A DNA stretch of 64,000 nucleotides from Phycisphaerae bacterium (GCA_029858345.1 JAOUFG010000002.1:13903-77902); one strand, 5' to 3'; shown: positions 6,340-52,344, counted from the stretch's first letter. The notes: a model not told the origin generated them from the sequence alone. Translations and numbers: made by a program.

Positions 6340-9300
6340 TTACGCATATACCTTCCCGAACAATAGAGACACATAATCCTGATCGTCGTCCATGAACAGG
6401 ATGTTATGGGCATGGAACATTTCCATGCCTGCTCCCGCGGCCCAGTGGGATATTTCACTGTATCGGGTCGGGGACAGGATAAATGAATTCAAAACGACGG
6501 TTTCATCCTGCAGACGCTGGCGCTCTATTCGCTTAATCGTTTCATTGAAGCGAATCTTGCTGTCATCAAAACTGCGGGCATTGCGCAGGCCATGCGGATC
6601 AATGAACGTGATATACTGCTTATCTTCATCCAGCAGCCACATGATGAAGTCCGGATAGAAATTGCCTTCTTCAAAGAAACTGATGCCCTTGCCGCGGCTT
6701 TGATTGCGTAGGACGTAGAGTTCCTTGCCGTCAAGAAACTCACCGGCGTTTGCCTGGCACCACGTTTTCAGGTCTTCAATGAATTTTTTCTCGTATTTAT
6801 TCAGGTGGGTTGGTTTGACGGAAATGCCCACGCTGCCCTGTGCAACATGGATCAACGGCTGGTATAAATGCTTGTCAAAATTGAACACTGACAGACTGGC
6901 ACACTCGTACTCCTGCAGCTGACCCTGCTGAAGCCGTTCACTGACGACATGCAGGTCCTGAATCAACTGTTCCTGACTCTTTTCAATCGCGGCTCGATAT
7001 TCAATCCGCAAGTTCTGCAGGAATTGTTTGTTGTGGCGTTCCTCCGGATCATCCATGACCTGCTGAATGGTTCGGTATTCCTGATACGGGGCCTCAAATT
7101 CATCCTTGTGGAAATTGTAGAATTTGCGGCAGTATTTCTGCAGCAGGTCGGCGGCGATTTCCTGCCAAATATCAACCTTGCCGAAATTAGAAAACTCCAG
7201 CAGGTGGTTGGGGATGCACAGAACATACCAGTCCGTTTGCGATAATAATTCGCGGATAGACTCTTTGCTGATTTGAAGATTATACATCGCATTCTGCTTC
7301 TTGAAATGCAGCAGGTCCAGATACAGCTTGTCATAATCCAGAAACAGACGGTTCTCCGGTTTCAGCGATGTTTCATTAAAATGGTTCTCGTCCGTTGAAT
7401 GCAAATCATAGCGGGTGGTCCGGCTGTCCAGACGGCCATACCAATCCGCTGAGACTGTGGTACGGATTCGGTCATCCCGGCTCAATACCGGTTTGACTTC
7501 TTTTTTGAAGTCCGGCATATCCCGTTTAGGCAAAATAACCTTCAAATCCGTACGGGCCAGATTTTCCAGTGTCGGCAGGACAATGATTTCGGTTTTCTTT
7601 TCCGAATCGACATCCTCTTCCTCGATGTATTCATTAAACGCCTGCATATAATCGGCACGAATCCCGAATACATTCAGTGTTTCCAACTCCGCGATATATT
7701 GCGGGTGCTCAACTTCCGGCAGGTGGCCGCTGCGTTTCAGACAGAAATCCAATCCTTTCAGGCGAACACCACGACCGAATAACTGGATGATCTGAGAGCC
7801 CTCGTTGCGGCCGATATTGACCAGCCCCATGCAACTGACGCGCCAGCAGTTCCAGCCCTCAATAAACTTCTTGGCACCCACCAGCAACCGGATTTTGCTG
7901 TTGGGAGATTTAATCTCATCGAACAGAGACACTGAAAACTCCTGTTCGGTGCAAACAATTGTCTCGCCGTGACGGGCCTGCAGCAAATCCCACAGCTTTT
8001 TGGGGTCGCCAACATTGATGACACCGAAGTACTCGCCGCCATCGCCAATCCGCAGACCGATTTCACTGCCGCTGCCTTTAAGATGAACGGCATGGAGCAG
8101 GCCGCGGCCTGTGGTATTGAACACGACCTCCAGAATGTCCCTGAATAGGCGGGTCGCTGAATCTGTTTCGGTTGCCGGAAACAGGTGGGTGATGTAATTA
8201 AACGCATTGCGAAAGACCAGACCATCCTGATCGTGAAGGTCGTCGCGATGGCGAATCAGCAAATCCAGCATCCGGATGCTGTCCCGTTCGTCGGCAATAA
8301 AATCGGCAAAAAACTTCAGTGCCGTTACCACGTCTGTATCGTGCGTTTGCTGACGCTGGCCGGTGACCGAACCACCAACAAACACCATCAGCGGATCGTC
8401 AACCAGATAACTGGCATATTGACCCTTGCGGTCCTTGTATAAGCGGCATTGCTGATAAAACCGTATCAGGCAGGCGGTCAGATAAATCTTGTGCTGCTGG
8501 TCAATCGCGCCGCCTTCTTCCTGGCGATAGTTGAGAATATGAAAATCCTTGCCGTAACCGTCGCCAAAGAAGAATTTATACGAATAGTCAAAAATCACGC
8601 TCTTGGCATAAAGCTGGCCCATTTCCTTTTGTTTATTTCCGGACAGCGCATTGACCGACTGACCGAAGGTGGCGGAGTATTCAAATGAAAATCCATCCTC
8701 ACAAAGCTGCTGGCGTTTGCTGAACCATTCCTCGCCGCCTGAGCCGCGATGGCCTTCATCGACCATGACAACATTATTGCGGCCAAATTCATCGACCGAA
8801 ACGGTCGTCACACCGGTCTTTTCCTTCAGTTTGGTGATTTCGATGACCTCGATGATGGCCTTGTTCAGCAAGGCACCACGGTCGCGTTCGTAGCGTTCGG
8901 CGGGGATTCCGGACAGATCGAATTCCTCCAGATGTTGTTCGGAAAGCCCCTCATTGGGCGTAATCAGGATGTATTTGTTAAAATGGCGGTCCAGTTTACG
9001 CTGTTTAAGGTAATCATCCAACTGGCGGATATTGCAGTGCATAATCAGCGTCTTGCCGCCGCCGGTGGCGATCCAGTAGGCCAGCTTGGTCAAATCCTGT
9101 CCCGTAAACGGTTCGACATGGTCCGATGCTGCACCGCGACCGGTAAACCGCAGGTTGAAGGTTTCACAAAACGCATTCAACTCATCCAGCAGGGTTGTCT
9201 GGCGCTGCTGAAGGTCACGGGTCCAGCGATCCAGATAGTATTCGGTAAACAACAGGGAGAGATACTGAAAATACAGCGGGAAAATATCCCGGTGCTCGAC

Positions 9301-15624: not shown

Positions 15625-15726
15625 ACAGTCCTGTTTTACAGAAGACGGCCTTCTTGACACCGAATGATAACGCTGAAAAGCTCATTTTACAACCCAATTC
15701 CAGATAAAACTCGTTACTAATTACAT

Positions 15727-16002
15727 TTACGTAATAAATGAATTCTCTGGACCGAAACACACAAGCGGCAACCCCTCGCAATCGGCCTGATCGAAGCAAA
15801 ACAGACGTTTAAACCGGTTTTTCAGGCTATCAGGGCCGGGGAATAGGTGTTTTTCGACCTTCTTGAAGTCTTTCGGACTTAAACTGCCCAGATATCTGCA
15901 GAGTCTAGCCCAACGTTCTGGATCAATACCATCGGAAAGCTCGCGCCAGAGACCAGTTTCAGAAACAGTAGGTTCGGCAAACAATAAACCTTGTGAGGAC
16001 AT
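15727..16002 (-). CDS. Hypothetical small protein (91 aa) at the head of the defence cluster
   Basis: Track ORF with AAGGA about 9 nt upstream of the ATG. No motif recognised; coding status uncertain. Confidence 0.3.
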   Translation of the reverse strand: MSSQGLLFAEPTVSETGLWRELSDGIDPERWARLCRYLGSLSPKDFKKVEKHLFPGPDSLKNRFKRLFCFDQADCEGLPLVCFGPENSFIT

Positions 16003-16146
16003 GGGAAATTCCTTTCAACCAATCGTTCTGGATTAGTTAAAAGGGCTTAGGAGGGAGGTGGGCAAGCCAGAGCTCGGTGCAACCCTTACTGTAAAGGGTT
16101 ATTATATCGGCAAAAGGGTTTTATGCGAATAAATTTTTCTGTCCTC

Positions 16147-16175
16147 TTGCCTTGAAAGCCTGTTTTTAGTATAAT
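16147..16175 (+). promoter_or_regulatory. Putative sigma70-type promoter (TTGCCT-17 nt-TATAAT)
   Basis: TTGCCT at 16147-16152 and TATAAT at 16170-16175, about 25 nt upstream of the AGGAG RBS and ATG at 16201. Confidence 0.4.
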
Positions 16176-16200
16176 TTCGGCGATTAAAACAGGAGATACT

Positions 16201-18990: not shown

Positions 18991-19059
18991 TGCAACACCA
19001 ATTTTGAAGTTGCAAATCAAAAAAAACTGATTTTTTTACCCTTATTATTGCGGGATGAA

Positions 19060-19092
19060 GCGGCGTAGACCTCTGGTTTACGCCGCTTTTTT
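19060..19092 (+). terminator. Rho-independent terminator
   Basis: 8-bp stem GCGGCGTA/TACGCCGC with an 11-nt loop, followed by TTTTTT (19087-19092). Confidence 0.7.
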
Positions 19093-19234
19093 GTTGCACA
19101 TTCGTTGCACTGCAAAATCCTCTTATTTAATTCCCCGCGACAGGTTCGACCAGAAACAAACTTCTGGCTGTCGCAGGGAAATCAATCGTATCGAGCCTGC
19201 CTCCTTGCCAGCCAGTTTTATAAGGAGATTCGAC

Positions 19235-19852
19235 ATGAATCTATTAAAACAGGCAGGCCATTCGGATGGCCAAAACGAAGTCGTGGCGTATGCCGAAACC
19301 ACCATCGAAATCTTAGCCAAAGAACTGATCGGTAAATGCGGGATTACTCCAGACGATCTGGAGGATATTGAGCAGGAAATGATGATCGATCTGCTACGGC
19401 GGCTTGGCAATTATGACCGATCCAAAGCCAAGCTAACCACCTTTATCAAGCGGGTGCTTGAACGTAAAATCGCCAATATCCTGCGCCAACGCTGTACGGA
19501 AAAAGAGTTCTTAAATCGCTCATGTCTGAGCCTGGAAAAGTCCATTCAGTCATACGACACGCCTGGCGAACACATAACGCTGGGCGACACCGTAACGACA
19601 GAATACTATGACAAAACCGTTCGCGGCAAAATGCGAAGCCGCGAAGACGAGCGTCAGCTTGTTTTCGATGTCCGTCAGATCGTAGCGGTTTTTCCGGATG
19701 AACTTCGTATCGCTTGCGAACATCTGCTCTCTGGCAAAAGCGTCAGCGAGACAGCCAATTTGGTCGGCATCAAACGCTCCACATTCTATGAAAAGGTTCT
19801 GGCACCCATCCGCGAGGCGTTCCAAGCGGCTGATCTAAAAAATTATCTGTAA
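19235..19852 (+). CDS. Sigma-70/ECF-like sigma factor (prophage early region)
   Basis: Region-2-like EQEMMIDLLRRLGNYD...TFIKRVLERKIANILRQ and region-4 HTH LSGKSVSETANLVGIKRSTFYEKV. ATG at 19235 is preceded by AGGAG; the track start at 19055 runs through the upstream terminator. Confidence 0.7.
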   Translation: MNLLKQAGHSDGQNEVVAYAETTIEILAKELIGKCGITPDDLEDIEQEMMIDLLRRLGNYDRSKAKLTTFIKRVLERKIANILRQRCTEKEFLNRSCLSLEKSIQSYDTPGEHITLGDTVTTEYYDKTVRGKMRSREDERQLVFDVRQIVAVFPDELRIACEHLLSGKSVSETANLVGIKRSTFYEKVLAPIREAFQAADLKNYL

Positions 19853-21165: not shown

Positions 21166-21233
21166 GGCGAGGAAAACGGTTTTGCACGGGTCTCATAAGC
21201 CCGTGGTTGTCGGTTCGACTCCGGCACTCGCCT
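21166..21233 (+). other. tRNA-like element (Met-CAU-type anticodon arm, canonical T-arm, acceptor) with a truncated D-arm
   Basis: Hand fold: acceptor GGCGAG(G)/(A)CTCGCC, anticodon stem CGGGT/GCCCG with loop CTCATAA, and T-arm GTCGG-TTCGACT-CCGGC. Only 13 nt lie where a D-arm should be. Confidence 0.3.
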
Positions 21234-33100: not shown

Positions 33101-33661
33101 ATGAGTATATATAATAGAGGGCAACACTTTTTTGAATCAATCAACCAAACTATCACTGAAAACCAGAACCTAATTCACGAAGTCATCAAGAAACACTACT
33201 CGCATCTGAAGCCCTGGCAAACAGATGAATTGTTTGCCGATGGCATTTTGGGATTATGGGCAGCCGTCAAACAATATAAACCTGGCAAGCAAAGTTTTAA
33301 ATCCTACGCGAAGATTCAGATTCGATTGCATATTCGACGCGGGCTTGTTGATCGCCAGGATCCACTGGTTCGTCATCTTGAAGGTGAGAAATACACCATA
33401 CAGCAATTTGTCGAACTGGGTTTTGATCAGGGTCAGCCACATGAAGGCTTTAATCATACGGAAACAAATGATCTCGTTTACCTCTTGATCAACGAATTAA
33501 CAGATCACGAAAAACGAATCATCCATGAGCATTTCTGGGAAGATTTAAGTTTTAGTAAAGTTGCGAAGCATTACGGAACCACCAAACGACATATTCAGCT
33601 ATTAATTGAATCCGTCATTAAAAAAATGAGACAGCATGCAGAAAGAATTGATGCATTATGA
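33101..33661 (+). CDS. Sigma-70 family sigma factor inserted between terminase and portal
   Basis: Region 2-like DELFADGILGLWAAVKQYKP...SYAKIQIRLHIRRGL and region 4 LTDHEKRIIHEHFWEDLSFSKVAKHYGTTKRHIQLLIESVIKKMR. Visibly more AT-rich than its flanks. Confidence 0.75.
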   Translation: MSIYNRGQHFFESINQTITENQNLIHEVIKKHYSHLKPWQTDELFADGILGLWAAVKQYKPGKQSFKSYAKIQIRLHIRRGLVDRQDPLVRHLEGEKYTIQQFVELGFDQGQPHEGFNHTETNDLVYLLINELTDHEKRIIHEHFWEDLSFSKVAKHYGTTKRHIQLLIESVIKKMRQHAERIDAL

Positions 33662-48050: not shown

Positions 48051-48455
48051 ATGGGATGCTGCGGAAAAATATCAAAGGGACTTTCGATTGCCAAGGGCAA
48101 CCTGGCGGTGGTGCTCGAAAAAATCAACTTGCTGCCACCCGATCCGTTTATGTATCATTCGGTCCGGCTGCGGGCGTGTCGTTCATGTAAGTATCACACC
48201 TATCTGACCGAGAGTGAGTTCCTGGACTGGATTGATGAACATGGCGGATTGGTCAAGTTCGTTGCTGAGATTGATATCCTGGACCAGTGGCCGCCACTGC
48301 CCATTGAACAGGAAAAGCCCGGAGCGAAATTGTTCTGCAGTCTGTGTAAATGCTGGCTGCCAGCGAAAGCGTATGTCAAACAAGAAAATTGCCCAATCCA
48401 GCATCCGGATTGGCGAAAACCGAAGTGCTTCTTCAATACAAAGGAAACCTTATAA
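48051..48455 (+). CDS. Cys-rich small protein (MGCCGK N-terminus, two CxxC pairs)
   Basis: CRSCKYH...CSLCKCW motifs. Tightly packed between the tail tip gene (2 nt downstream of its stop) and the fibre gene (stop overlaps the fibre ATG). Confidence 0.5.
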   Translation: MGCCGKISKGLSIAKGNLAVVLEKINLLPPDPFMYHSVRLRACRSCKYHTYLTESEFLDWIDEHGGLVKFVAEIDILDQWPPLPIEQEKPGAKLFCSLCKCWLPAKAYVKQENCPIQHPDWRKPKCFFNTKETL

Positions 48456-50158
48456 TGTCTGAAAAATACTGGTATGGCGGCGTGACGAATCACCGAGGCG
48501 AATGGGACTGGGAAGGTATCGCCCCCTTTACGATTTATGCAGGAAATTTGGTCAACGTCGGTGGACTGTGTGGGATTGGCGCTGTTGGGCATGGTTTAAT
48601 GCCTGGCGATGAGATCACCATCGCTGGAACATCCACGATTGACGGCACATATAATGTCCACACATCAACGACGGCCGATGTTATCGTTATTGATCTGCCC
48701 TTTTTCCTGCTGTCTGGCACAAACTCGATTGTTTCGGGGACTCAGTGGACGGCATCAGGAATCAATCTATACACGTCCGGCGTCCAGGCCGGAATGAGGA
48801 TCAAGCTCTTCAATGGCGCTACGTTGCTGGGTGCAAAATACTCCGGCAGCAACGGCATCGTTGCAGGCACGGCGTTCACGGCATCGGGTGTAGACTTCTA
48901 TGCGATGGGTGTCGAGGTTGGAATGACCGTCAAACTGACCAGTGTTGGAAGCGGGTATCTTGGCGAGTTTGCGATTACGAGCATTACGGATGCGACTCAC
49001 TTGGTGATTGAGGACACCGGCACATCCGAAAGCGGCCTGACCTGGGAAATCCAGGTGCGTGACGAGGCCACATGGGGCGGCTTTGAAATCATCGCCGTCA
49101 CGGATGCAACCCATTTGCAGCTTGAATCGACCGGTCTTTCCCAAAGCGGTGTAACTTATGAAATTAACCGGGGTGAGACCTTTGATGGCACCGAAACCAT
49201 CACGCCCAACATCGATTCCAACTGGAAACTGGTCACTGATGGAAGTAACACTGACAAGCCCACCGATGGAGATGTGGTCCAATTCAATGATCGGGCGTAT
49301 TACAACAGTACTGCCCAACGATACCAGGACTGCACCATCAATGTCGATGCGGCCGGAACGGGAACGCCCAATCTGGGTGGGATGTTTGTTTCGGCTGGAT
49401 TTAATGGCCATCTTGGTAGTGAGTCGAATCCAGTGGAGATTAATTGCCAAAACAACGACATTGTTGTGGACGGTGAATGCACAATTTATTTGAAACTATC
49501 CGCCGGAGCAGGAGCAGATGCAGGATGCGGGCGGTTGGTCGTCAATAATGAAAAGGCAAATGTCTATGTCTCCAGCCTGCTTAACGATGTGAGTAATGTG
49601 TGCCTGTATGATTTGCTGATCTGCCTGAAGGGGTATCTCTGGATTCAGGATAATTGTGCGGTAGGGGAGTTGGTTTCCGCCAACTATAGCTCATTCGTCG
49701 ATGCAGGCGTCGGGATTGAAAATATCAAGGCAGGCACACCGTGCAGGATCACGGCCGTCAAGGGCGAGATTGTATGGCGGTCGAAGATTGACCAAGTCAA
49801 ACTTTTTGATGCGGAGTTTGCCTGGGGGGATGAAGATATGACCGAGGTGGTCAATTATGCCTGCAATCTTCTGACCATCTACTCCAAGAGCGGTGAGTTC
49901 CAGTGGCAGATGGCCGACACCGGCGAATCAGTCATCAAGCAGTTTGTGCTGTACGCTGGAAACCTGATCGCCTCCCAGTCGGTCAACAGCGGCTATAAAA
50001 AGAAAATCGGCACGGGCACCGAAATCAGCGAATTGTGGCCGGATGCAACCGCCAACCTAAACAGTTCATCCAACAATGTGTTAATTGCTGCTGGCTCCAA
50101 ATTGGAATCGCATGGGGGGACATTAATTGCCTCCAGTGGCTCATTGTTAGGATGGTAA
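48455..50158 (+). CDS. Tail fibre / receptor-binding protein with internal repeats
   Basis: The ATG at 48455 overlaps the previous TAA. Last structural gene; repeated ~45-aa segments are visible in the protein. Confidence 0.6.
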   Translation: MSEKYWYGGVTNHRGEWDWEGIAPFTIYAGNLVNVGGLCGIGAVGHGLMPGDEITIAGTSTIDGTYNVHTSTTADVIVIDLPFFLLSGTNSIVSGTQWTASGINLYTSGVQAGMRIKLFNGATLLGAKYSGSNGIVAGTAFTASGVDFYAMGVEVGMTVKLTSVGSGYLGEFAITSITDATHLVIEDTGTSESGLTWEIQVRDEATWGGFEIIAVTDATHLQLESTGLSQSGVTYEINRGETFDGTETITPNIDSNWKLVTDGSNTDKPTDGDVVQFNDRAYYNSTAQRYQDCTINVDAAGTGTPNLGGMFVSAGFNGHLGSESNPVEINCQNNDIVVDGECTIYLKLSAGAGADAGCGRLVVNNEKANVYVSSLLNDVSNVCLYDLLICLKGYLWIQDNCAVGELVSANYSSFVDAGVGIENIKAGTPCRITAVKGEIVWRSKIDQVKLFDAEFAWGDEDMTEVVNYACNLLTIYSKSGEFQWQMADTGESVIKQFVLYAGNLIASQSVNSGYKKKIGTGTEISELWPDATANLNSSSNNVLIAAGSKLESHGGTLIASSGSLLGW

Positions 50159-50179
50159 AATTAGGATGGTAAAATGAAA

Positions 50180-50209
50180 TTGACAGAAACCGCGTATTGT
50201 TTGTATAAT
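50180..50209 (+). promoter_or_regulatory. Near-consensus sigma70 promoter TTGACA-18 nt-TATAAT
   Basis: TTGACA 50180-50185 and TATAAT 50204-50209, with TG immediately upstream of the -10. Confidence 0.6.
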
Positions 50210-50215
50210 GAGGGG

Positions 50216-50302
50216 CAATTAAAAAGCTCCTTCTGCCGCCTGTGGTGTAGCCCTGGGAAGTTCACTAACTTCCTCCTCCTTCTTGCCACAGGCGGTCTTT
50301 TT
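50216..50302 (+). ncRNA. Candidate ~85-nt small RNA or leader ending in an intrinsic terminator
   Basis: Outer stem GCCGCCTGTGG (50235-50245) / CCACAGGCGGT (50286-50296) followed by CTTTTT. Inner hairpin GGAAGTT-CACT-AACTTCC. CU-rich tracts CTCCTTCT and CCTCCTCCTTCTT. The 5' end is inferred from the promoter. Confidence 0.45.
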
Positions 50303-50376
50303 CAACAACCATCTTTTGTCTTGTCTGTATTAATCAATCATCTTAGCTTTTAACCCCATTTTTGAGAGGAGTGACG

Positions 50377-50586
50377 GTGCAGAATTTTCCTGAATTAATG
50401 ACTGAGGACGAAGTAATTCAATTCCTACGGATTCCCGAAATCAGCAAAGCCGCCAACTATCGGCATGTGATTGAAAACCTCAAGCGGATGCATGACCTGC
50501 CCTGTATCCATATCTGCCGACAGCCGCTATATCCCTTGGATTCTGTGCGAAATTGGGTCAAAAATAAGGCATTATTGGAGGAATAG
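50377..50586 (+). CDS. Excisionase-like HTH protein
   Basis: TEDEVIQFLRIPE...LPCIHICRQPLYPLDSVRNWV resembles MerR/excisionase-type HTH. It sits just upstream of int. Start uncertain (GTG 50377 after AGGAG, or ATG 50398). Confidence 0.6.
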   Translation: MQNFPELMTEDEVIQFLRIPEISKAANYRHVIENLKRMHDLPCIHICRQPLYPLDSVRNWVKNKALLEE

Positions 50587-50673
50587 AGTGGATTTATTGG
50601 CCCAAATAATTCATAATAAAGACCAGGTTAATCCAGGTCTAACCGGCGTCATGAGTCAGAAAGGAATGGCTCA

Positions 50674-51876
50674 ATGATGAGACAAAAAAAACTGGTTACA
50701 CTCTGGGAAAGGCCATCTTCGGATGGCAAAGGTTTTACCTATTACCTGCTCTTTAACGATGAAAACGGGATTCGACGGCAACGGTCGCTCGGTCACGCCG
50801 ACAAGCGAAAAGCAGAACGGCAGCGGGACAAGTTTGAGCGGCAATTGCGGATGGGAATGGTAGAGCCAAGTTCTTTGAAAATTAAAGACTTCGTAAAAGA
50901 CAGCTTGGCAAGGACGGGCGATCAAATTCGCGAAAGCACTCGCAATGAGTATGCATCAGGGGTGAAAGATTTTATCAAACGAATCGGCAACCTTGATGTT
51001 CGAGATGTGACGCTTACGCATGGAGAAAAATACCGACAACTCTGTCTGGACGATGGCAATTCGCCTGCGACGGTCACCAAAAAACTCAAGCATTTAAAAC
51101 GATTGTTTCAGTTGGGAGTCAACAGGCGGCAACTCGACGAGAATCCTTTTAAGTTTGTGGATACTCCCAAGACCCGCAAAAAGAAGATTCGTATCTACTC
51201 GGAAGCAGAATGCCAAAGCATCCTTAAGGTTGCTCAAGAATATAGTGTAGAATGGGATCTGCAATACCGACCCAAATGGGATTTGCTAATTATTGTGGCG
51301 TTGGCAACCGGGATGCGACGTGCCGAACTTCTAAATTGCACCTGGAGCGATGTGGATTTTGAACAGCAGGTGATTAACGTCACTCCCAAAGAGGATACGA
51401 AAGCAACATGGCGCTGGGATATTAAGGACTCCGATGAACGAATGCTGCCGCTGACCAATGAGGTGACGCAACTCCTTGTGGACCATCATGCCAAGCAACC
51501 TGAGGGCTATCCTTATGTATTCGTGCCTGTTGGGCGATATGATGTCATTCAAACGCTCCGAGCCAAAGGGCAGTGGACATACTCGGATTCTCGATTGAAG
51601 GTTGTAAATAATTTTACTCCGCAATTCGAGAAAATCCTGAAAACGGCCAAGGTCAAAAAAGGGCAGTTTCACGACCTGCGACGTACGGCAATCACAAATT
51701 GGTTTGCCAATGGCATGGGGGAGCACGACGTCATGGTTCTGGCGGGTCACTCTAATTTTGCGACCACGCATGAATTTTACTTGGCGGTGGCAGATGATTT
51801 AGTGGACCGAGCAAGGCGGGCATCCGTGAAAAGTATTGATCAAAATCTGTTGCAAATCTGTTGCAGGAGCATATAA
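50674..51876 (+). CDS. int: Tyrosine site-specific integrase
   Basis: C-terminal catalytic motifs ATGMRRAELLNCTW, HDLRRTAITNW and LAGHSNFATTHEFY. Adjacent to the tRNA 3' end. Confidence 0.9.
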   Translation: MMRQKKLVTLWERPSSDGKGFTYYLLFNDENGIRRQRSLGHADKRKAERQRDKFERQLRMGMVEPSSLKIKDFVKDSLARTGDQIRESTRNEYASGVKDFIKRIGNLDVRDVTLTHGEKYRQLCLDDGNSPATVTKKLKHLKRLFQLGVNRRQLDENPFKFVDTPKTRKKKIRIYSEAECQSILKVAQEYSVEWDLQYRPKWDLLIIVALATGMRRAELLNCTWSDVDFEQQVINVTPKEDTKATWRWDIKDSDERMLPLTNEVTQLLVDHHAKQPEGYPYVFVPVGRYDVIQTLRAKGQWTYSDSRLKVVNNFTPQFEKILKTAKVKKGQFHDLRRTAITNWFANGMGEHDVMVLAGHSNFATTHEFYLAVADDLVDRARRASVKSIDQNLLQICCRSI

Positions 51877-51890
51877 CGCCCAAAAAGGGA

Positions 51891-51920
51891 AAAGCCAAAA
51901 ACCTGTAAGTCTTTGGCTTT
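51891..51920. terminator. Hairpin between int and tRNA-Phe
   Basis: AAAGCCAAA / TTTGGCTTT 9-bp stem with a 12-nt loop. Confidence 0.35.
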
Positions 51921-51935
51921 ACGTCATTTACGAAA

Positions 51936-52008
<73 letters not shown>

Positions 52009-52344
52009 TCGCTGTGGCGAGAAACCAAAAAATTAGCAAAACGCCCTCTGCTTTGCAAGAGAAATCCCTCAAAATCCTGGAATCTCATTGATTAACCGAT
52101 TTTGCCCTCAGAAAGGCGACACGTAATGACCTGAAAGCTCCTTGCGTGCAAAGTATTCTGTATATGATTGAAAACTGCCGTTTCTGCTCGGCTATGTAGG
52201 GTTGTCCCGATACATCGGGATAAATTACGGATTGACTCGCTGGAATTTATGCCCCCTAAGAACACATGTTAAAGATTTTGAAATTAGGGATTCAAATTGT
52301 CCAACAATTAATTATAATACAATGCGTCTTTATGGTTATAGTAT

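Follow-up and report, generated by a model that had tools for sequence, protein, structure and literature searches.

Genes and features at the locus

The DNA analysed here, referred to as the window, is a stretch of 64,000 nt from a Phycisphaerae bacterium (GCA_029858345.1 JAOUFG010000002.1:13903-77902). It contains a complete siphovirus-like prophage, which extends from roughly 16.2 to 52.0 kb. The early and replication genes encode an exonuclease, a Sak4-like annealase, an SSB, a helicase, a primase, and a ParB-methyltransferase, and the late genes encode terminase, portal, a protease-capsid fusion, tape measure, and tail fibre. Two prophage genes (19055-19852 and 33101-33661; PHROG 1740/351) are sigma-factor-like, which points to a phage that steers RNA polymerase towards its own genes; the promoter described below is, by contrast, of host type. 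The host flank codes for an ECF sigma factor and a DUF1559-type protein. Since the nearest relatives of the Xis protein are found in Sedimentisphaerales/Phycisphaerae MAGs, and in view of the genes of the host flank, we infer that the host is a Planctomycete.

On the right, the prophage ends at a tRNA-Phe gene, its integration site (Table 1). No direct repeat of at least 13 nt of the tRNA-Phe region occurs elsewhere in the window (51880-52060; 15660-16200 inspected), and the left border is therefore set by gene content only. Rfam gives a weak tRNA match at 21166-21233 (plus strand; 32 bits, just above the gathering score) that ARAGORN does not call and that overlaps the beginning of the ORF for the Sak4-like annealase. 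This may represent a degenerate tRNA of the phage or a chance similarity.

The element of interest sits within the 218-nt gap between the stop codon of the tail-fibre gene (50158) and the xis-like gene (50377). Its placement just upstream of xis-int in the first-pass annotation holds: the xis-like HTH gene, the integrase gene, and tRNA-Phe follow in this order. The xis-like HTH protein has 698 homologues, mainly in Planctomycetota/Sedimentisphaerales. A 14-nt tandem duplication lies at the left junction; it is missing in the closest relative, L383, which reads ...GGGGTGGTAAAAATGAAATTGACAG.

Table 1 Features of the cassette and of the flanking prophage genes in the window
Feature	Position	Strand	Basis or remark
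Tail-fibre gene, last late gene	48350-50158	+	ORF of 602 aa; upstream border of cassette
Tandem duplication of 14 nt (TTAGGATGGTAAAA, twice)	50147-50174		Spans tail-fibre stop codon, left junction of cassette; 2 copies versus 0.02 expected
Sigma-70-type promoter	50180-50209	+	-35 TTGACA 50180-50185, 18-nt spacer, -10 TATAAT 50204-50209; 12/12 match
Predicted sRNA transcript, ~87 nt	50216-50302	+	Start placed 7 nt past the -10 hexamer; end, U-tract
5' unpaired motif CUCCUUCU, proposed seed 1	50227-50234	+	Identical in 8/8 copies; unpaired in each individual fold
Outer (terminator) stem, 5' arm GCCGCCUGUGG	50235-50245	+	Pairs with 50286-50296
Inner hairpin GGGAAGUU / AACUUCCU, apical loop CACU	50255-50274	+	50255-50262 with 50267-50274; loop core (U)CAC conserved
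Second unpaired CU-rich motif CCUCCUUCUU, proposed seed 2	50275-50284	+	Internal loop, 3' side, in all folds
Outer stem, 3' arm CCACAGGCGGU, and U-tract UCUUUUU; predicted intrinsic terminator	50286-50302	+	Fold; U-tract 50296-50302; T-run in all 8 copies
Xis-like HTH gene	50377-50586	+	PHROG HTH DNA-binding protein; downstream border of cassette
Tyrosine integrase gene	50674-51876	+	Pfam Phage_integrase 5e-20; PHROG_1 4e-52
tRNA-Phe (GAA), integration site, right prophage end	51936-52008	-	ARAGORN; Rfam 77 bits

A consensus promoter match precedes a predicted, stably folded RNA

The promoter had been described as the best in the window. In a scan of both strands (128 kb in total) it is the sole 12/12 site on either strand and one site scores 11/12, the scores being relative to a sigma-70-type consensus that may not be Planctomycetota's own. 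The 30-nt promoter has no exact match in the GTDB genome collection.

The predicted RNA folds with a free energy of -32.8 kcal/mol, compared with -17.7 +/- 2.5 kcal/mol for 200 dinucleotide shuffles (z = -5.96), none of which is as good. The outer stem is formed by GCCGCCUGUGG and CCACAGGCGGU. It has the 11 bp and the closing U-tract originally ascribed to it, and the MFE structure adds two wobble pairs. The inner hairpin is also present, but it has 8 bp and not the 7 bp first reported. Both CU-rich tracts thought to be exposed, CUCCUUCU and CCUCCUUCUU, are unpaired in the fold. The full second tract, CCUCCUCCUUCUU (50272-50284), begins inside the inner stem and is unpaired from 50275.

Eight copies share the fold and covary

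Seven further copies of the element are found in five IMG/VR viral contigs and one ENA contig, which gives 8 copies in seven contigs; the IMG/VR family count is a lower bound (at least 5 contigs). The first homologue, L115, came from an IMG/VR scan for the outer-stem palindrome and carries two copies. L118, L119, L123, and L125 were added by motif scans, and L383 by a look-up of tail-fibre homologues. The two copies in L115 (7318-7939, minus strand) are separated by 540 nt, with a 129-aa ORF between them. In the downstream copy, L115a, the second CU motif has diverged (UAUUCUCCUU).

A covariance model (R1), built from seven of the eight copies, scores 97.9 bits on the window copy and 68-91 bits on the 7 other copies. 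On about 2 Mb of fetched DNA, R1 finds nothing above 25 bits beyond the eight copies. All eight copies fold individually to one shape, with z between -5.2 and -6.6.

The first-pass annotation had named conservation and covariation in related phages as a check on the hairpin. The region is conserved in the eight copies and the stems covary. In a structure-blind MAFFT alignment, RNAalifold predicts 21 pairs, 10 of which (10/21) show compensatory changes. In the model alignment, 11 of the 21 pairs covary and 95.7% of cells are paired, versus 42-56% with the partners slid; none of 500 shuffles reaches the observed values. Compensatory changes are seen in 4 of the 12 model pairs of the outer stem (e.g., CCUGUGG/CCACAGG versus UCUAUGG/CCAUAGA) and in 6 of the 7 pairs of the inner stem. 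With so few members in the family, several of them closely related, the number of independent events behind these changes is low.

Conservation is not confined to the stems. CUCCUUCU is invariant (8/8), as is CAC of the apical loop (8/8), and UCCUCCUUCU is found in 7/8 copies; column conservation is 0.86 for unpaired and 0.80 for paired positions. A T-run follows the stem in 8/8 copies, on this strand only, and the opposite strand carries CAGAAGGAG there.

In five of the eight copies, a near-consensus promoter is located 6-18 nt upstream of CUCCUUCU. Besides the window copy, these are L119 (TTGACA-16-TATAAT), L383 (TTGACA-17-TATAGT), L123 (TTGACA-17-TAGTAT), and L118 (TTGACA-16-TACAAT), all at the homologous position. 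In L119 and L118, the promoter is the top-scoring site on that strand in the whole locus. At L115b, the promoter is weaker, and the upstream gene has a hairpin terminator of its own ahead of it. L125 has a weak promoter only, and no promoter is recognisable at L115a.

The RNA has no match in the window among the Rfam 15 covariance models (including SprX/RsaOR, LhrC, and RsaE) at gathering thresholds, and a search of 50100-50420 with E up to 10 gives noise of at most 14.4 bits. Blastn against the INPHARED phage genomes finds no match to the element. Looser IMG/VR motif scans returned about 250 loci among the matches listed, almost all of them false positives in coding regions or simple hairpins.

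Hairpins of the form CUCCUUCUGCCGCC-N4-GGCGGCUUCUUUUG are present in unrelated viral contigs (L237 7053-7089, L243 1215-1251, and L238 2146-2182). They score 22-24 bits with the model and have no inner part. As the opposite strand reads a terminator followed by a AGAAGGAG RBS, they are probably ordinary intergenic signals.

The first-pass proposal of a prophage sRNA with its own promoter, its own terminator, and exposed anti-SD-like tracts is thus strongly supported, at the level of sequence, by the eight copies with their covarying stems, invariant unpaired CU motifs, and conserved upstream promoters and by the lack of a conserved ORF. Judged from sequence, the RNA is real, conserved, structured, and non-coding, and constitutes an independent and mobile transcription unit.

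The cassette is an optional unit

In four related phages (the window, L383, L119, and L123), the cassette directly follows the tail-fibre stop codon. The related phages L119, L123, and L383 have tail-module proteins with 64-88% identity, and their cassettes begin 5-13 nt past the stop, as in the window. The tail-fibre homologues of L119, L123, L111, and L383 (64-92% identity) end in ...SGSLLGW and a stop codon just before the cassette or the empty site.

At least six relatives (L111, L374-L382, and L385) have no cassette, as judged by the lack of a model match. L111 is one of them: its tail fibre, Xis, and integrase are 92%, 88%, and 90% identical to those of the window, and its tail-fibre and xis genes are separated by 48 nt without the cassette.

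The downstream neighbours differ. The same xis-int module follows the cassette in the window and L383, an unrelated xis and integrase follow it in L123, and in L119 there is no ORF for 700 nt. The four remaining copies (two in L115, one each in L118 and L125) are in non-homologous contexts. In L125, the cassette lies between a PEP-CTERM gene, which precedes it, and the 3' end of a convergent gene, which it directly adjoins; in L115b, it follows a gene for a PEP-CTERM protein; in L118, it adjoins a type I R-M methylase gene.

Phage morons are additional units, each with promoter, gene, and terminator, that separate two genes found side by side in related phages (PMC3594210). The cassette is present or absent between the same flanks and has its own predicted promoter and terminator. 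Its GC content deviates as well (0.44 at 50159-50302, versus 0.51 in the tail-fibre gene and 0.52 in the prophage), which is weak evidence for so short an element. With these predicted signals, the cassette behaves as a phage moron.

The slot after the tail-fibre gene is hypervariable among the relatives. It is occupied by an N6 methylase, a convergent large helicase, other non-coding DNA, or xis-int alone (L374 1545-1705, L375 3866-3914, L378 3953-3967, L382 1632-2040, and L385 1295-1700), and looks like a cargo hot spot. In L385 (1400-1600), about 110 nt after the tail-fibre homologue are directly repeated on either side of an N run, probably a scaffolding artefact or a local repeat.

The xis-like HTH and integrase module is also found, without the cassette, behind inovirus-type Zot/TraX/secretin genes (L112 1-4479, L113 1-4361, and L114 1-2131; compare window 50377-51876), with Xis proteins 78-85% identical. 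In L112, the module adjoins the same ECF-sigma host neighbour. Tailed and filamentous prophages therefore appear to share one integration module and site.

Proposed function of the RNA

We propose that positions 50180-50302 are a self-contained gene for a non-coding RNA of about 77-87 nt, found as an optional moron in siphovirus-like phages of Phycisphaerae/Sedimentisphaerales, and that the RNA acts in trans on SD-type sites. We assign this reading a probability of about 0.58. Within it, the most likely activity is that of a trans-acting sRNA that would pair with purine-rich ribosome-binding sites.

The host-type sigma-70 promoter is predicted to start transcription a few bases before the invariant CUCCUUCU. 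The long GC-rich stem would double as an intrinsic terminator and enclose the small hairpin, and three pyrimidine-rich segments would be single-stranded, namely CUCCUUCU at the 5' end, UCAC in the apical loop, and UCCUCCUUCU in the internal loop. As the promoter has the host-type sigma-70 consensus and the phage has sigma-like factors of its own, host RNA polymerase would be expected to transcribe the RNA from the repressed prophage. The CU-rich segments could pair in trans with SD-type AGAAGGAG, GGAGG, or GGUGA of host or competing-phage mRNAs, and such pairing would block translation initiation, as it does for SprX and LhrC. At this locus, the terminator may have the side effect of insulating xis-int from transcription of the late operon and the cassette.

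SD-led starts are common in the window: in a crude gene call, about 45% of the genes have GGAG/GAGG at -4 to -22. Nowhere in the window does the coding strand contain AGAAGGAG, the perfect 8-mer complement. An RNAduplex ranking of targets in the window, with coding-region matches left unranked, puts the strongest generic SDs on top and xis 14th of 70. We rejected both predictions, exact complement and RNAduplex, as evidence, since they point to generic SDs only. A motif complementary to SDs in general does not account for target specificity. For a mutant design, CUGGUUCU is an altered version of the proposed seed CUCCUUCU.

In L125, the PEP-CTERM gene directly upstream of the sRNA copy (6983-7720, minus strand) has the RBS AAGAAGGAGAGC, a perfect 8-nt complement of CUCCUUCU. 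This is the only neat RBS match and is anecdotal. The PEP-CTERM genes preceding L115b have RBSs without such a complement.

The unit is compact and clearly delimited (promoter, RNA of ~80 nt, terminator) and comes with presence/absence variants and eight sequence variants, which makes it a directly testable candidate.

Alternative readings of the RNA and its signals

The unpaired segments could have another use. UCAC and CCUCCUUCU resemble what we take to be the conserved 16S 3' tail, AUCACCUCCUU. In one alternative, which we consider unlikely, the motifs UCAC, CCUCCUU, and CUCCUUCU imitate this tail (AUCACCUCCUU...), and the RNA is a decoy or sponge rather than an mRNA repressor. It would titrate a protein, a nuclease toxin, or purine-rich host sRNAs that recognise the tail or pyrimidine-rich RNA. 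The presence of three distinct conserved motifs in single strands, with UCAC of the apical loop beside CCUCCUU, fits this idea, as does the consensus-strength promoter, which implies a high copy number, and prophage anti-sRNA sponges are known in EHEC (PMC4104026). However, the motifs are short and equally expected of a plain SD-pairing seed.

A broader and more doubtful version is that the whole RNA mimics the 16S 3' tail, with the UCAC loop followed by single-stranded UCCUCCUUCU and a second CUCCUUCU at the 5' end. Produced in large quantity in lysogens from its consensus promoter, the RNA would compete with ribosomes for SDs or serve as decoy to a factor or toxin directed against the anti-SD tail. 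If so, the outcome would be a global re-weighting of translation, for example against SD-led mRNAs of superinfecting phages, instead of control of a few specific targets, and such mimicry would be a new viral way to bias host translation.

In another alternative, to which we give a similarly low probability, the element acts in cis as a leader or attenuator. The promoter would be that of xis-int, and excision would follow when the terminator is overcome by a protein bound to the CU repeats or by a phage antiterminator. In the window, L383, and L123, xis begins 35-75 nt past the terminator, and in the terminator-to-xis interval that strand has no other promoter of at least 9/12. A same-strand ORF lies within about 100 nt downstream in six of the eight copies. 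Against this, the xis and int genes of L123 are not homologous to those of the window, L119 lacks any ORF over the 700 nt downstream, and the L125 copy abuts a convergent gene. Conversely, L111 and the inovirus-type L112-L114 have the same xis-int module and are cassette-free. A terminator-containing leader that gates xis/int, as first suggested, therefore finds no support as a function of the family, because the cassette occurs in unrelated contexts, one of them without a downstream gene.

The read-through fold argues in the same direction: the terminator is kept, no competing antiterminator forms, and the CU tracts are not paired with the xis SD. Neither the MFE nor the centroid structure of 50216-50400 contains an antiterminator helix, although a protein-dependent mechanism is possible. 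In the 300 nt upstream of Xis homologues at 108 loci (genomes and metagenomes), there is no blastn similarity to the element and no recurrent promoter-plus-terminator, and the model has no match above 17 bits. The element does not travel with xis.

It is improbable, and somewhat more so than a leader, that the element does no more than end the late (tail) operon, as an intrinsic terminator kept by descent, with a promoter that is fortuitous or an arrangement that insulates or primes the downstream genes. The position directly after the last late gene in four phages and the stable GC stem with a T-run, a canonical terminator, are what this reading would predict. But a terminator needs neither the invariant unpaired CU motifs, the conserved apical loop, and the 40-nt insert in the stem, nor the near-consensus promoter that five copies retain 6-18 nt upstream. 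Moreover, L115b has a hairpin terminator for its upstream gene ahead of the promoter, and related phages do without the cassette.

We also considered the DNA itself. The inverted repeat is unlikely to be a protein-binding palindrome, because the repeats are 40 nt apart, the inner hairpin covaries, and a T-run follows.

A small protein or a toxin-antitoxin RNA is very improbable. The first-pass statement that no ORF follows the promoter is nearly right: a 59-codon ORF (ORF59, 50174-50353) overlaps the element, but it is an orphan and its frame is not kept elsewhere. On this reading, the region would either encode a small protein, from ORF59 (the C-terminal half of which is hydrophobic) or from an ORF that follows the AGGAGG tracts on the minus strand, or specify a toxin-antitoxin RNA of type I/III. 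ORF59 has AGGA 8 nt ahead of its ATG and is called as a gene in a public assembly, and the minus strand has AGGAGGAGG followed by GTG. However, ORF59 has no homologue among 5.8 billion proteins, a search that, used as a proxy for other copies, returned only ORF59 itself. Its ATG is created by the window-specific 14-nt duplication that L383 lacks, and the predicted terminator would fall within it. No ORF is conserved in frame across the copies on either strand, ORFs in the other copies being missing (L125 has none at all) or in differing frames, and the substitutions track base pairing, not codons.

As for a toxin-antitoxin system, neither a repeat array nor an adjacent toxin gene is present, and a type I test found no conserved small hydrophobic ORF overlapping or adjacent to the element. 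The suggestion of an RNA antitoxin falls with the lack of a conserved small toxin ORF beside or opposite the RNA. A minus-strand arrangement (a hairpin, an AGGAGG RBS, and a short ORF, or a bidirectional terminator) was likewise rejected, because the upstream A-tract is window-specific, T-runs follow the stem only on the plus strand, which also carries the promoters, and the minus strand has no conserved ORF.

Comparison with known systems

Riboregulation in Planctomycetota and the accessory cargo carried by their phages are, to our knowledge, almost unexplored. Among phage immunity and antisense RNAs, c4 of P1/P7, sar of P22, and CI RNA of P4 are small transcripts that mask an RBS or target transcripts of the phage. 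Each is complementary over an extended stretch to a site in its own phage, unlike the RNA described here, for which this prophage has no such site and whose cassette is dispensable in relatives.

The organization of the cassette is that of morons of the HK97 gene 15 type (PMC3594210): an inserted promoter-gene-terminator unit of deviant GC that lies close to the att site, towards the end of the late operon. Classical morons, however, encode proteins. Moron-like units that encode regulatory RNAs, among them the anti-sRNAs AgvB and AsxR, are present in EHEC prophages (PMC4104026), but AgvB and AsxR are Hfq-dependent sponges of host sRNAs and lack CU-rich anti-SD motifs.

SprX (RsaOR) is an sRNA of Staphylococcus aureus converting phages, the CU-rich loop of which pairs with the spoVG RBS and blocks translation (PMC4005690). 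Like the RNA described here, SprX is prophage-borne, forms a stand-alone unit with a CU/C-rich unpaired segment, and is variable in occurrence, its copy number differing between strains. The two have no similarity in sequence or by Rfam model and come from different phyla, and the targets and expression of SprX are demonstrated whereas our RNA is predicted. The architecture differs too, SprX consisting of several separate hairpins versus one long terminator stem that encloses a hairpin.

LhrC1-5 of Listeria monocytogenes bind AG-rich SDs through three redundant CU-rich sites, of which one lies in a loop, one in a single strand, and one in the terminator (PMC4132741). The distribution of CU-rich motifs over single strand, hairpin loop, and terminator element is shared with our RNA, and there is no homology between them. 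LhrC RNAs are chromosomal, induced by the two-component system LisRK, and built on a UCCC core, in contrast to a phage-borne RNA with a constitutive-looking consensus promoter and a CCUCCUUCU core.

The RNA thus represents a new family, absent from Rfam, of a type that is already known, the prophage-borne moron sRNA with CU-rich anti-SD-type seeds. If its CU motifs target RBSs, it would be a lysogenic-conversion factor made of RNA, and phages of a distant phylum would have arrived independently at the strategy that SprX and LhrC use in Firmicutes.
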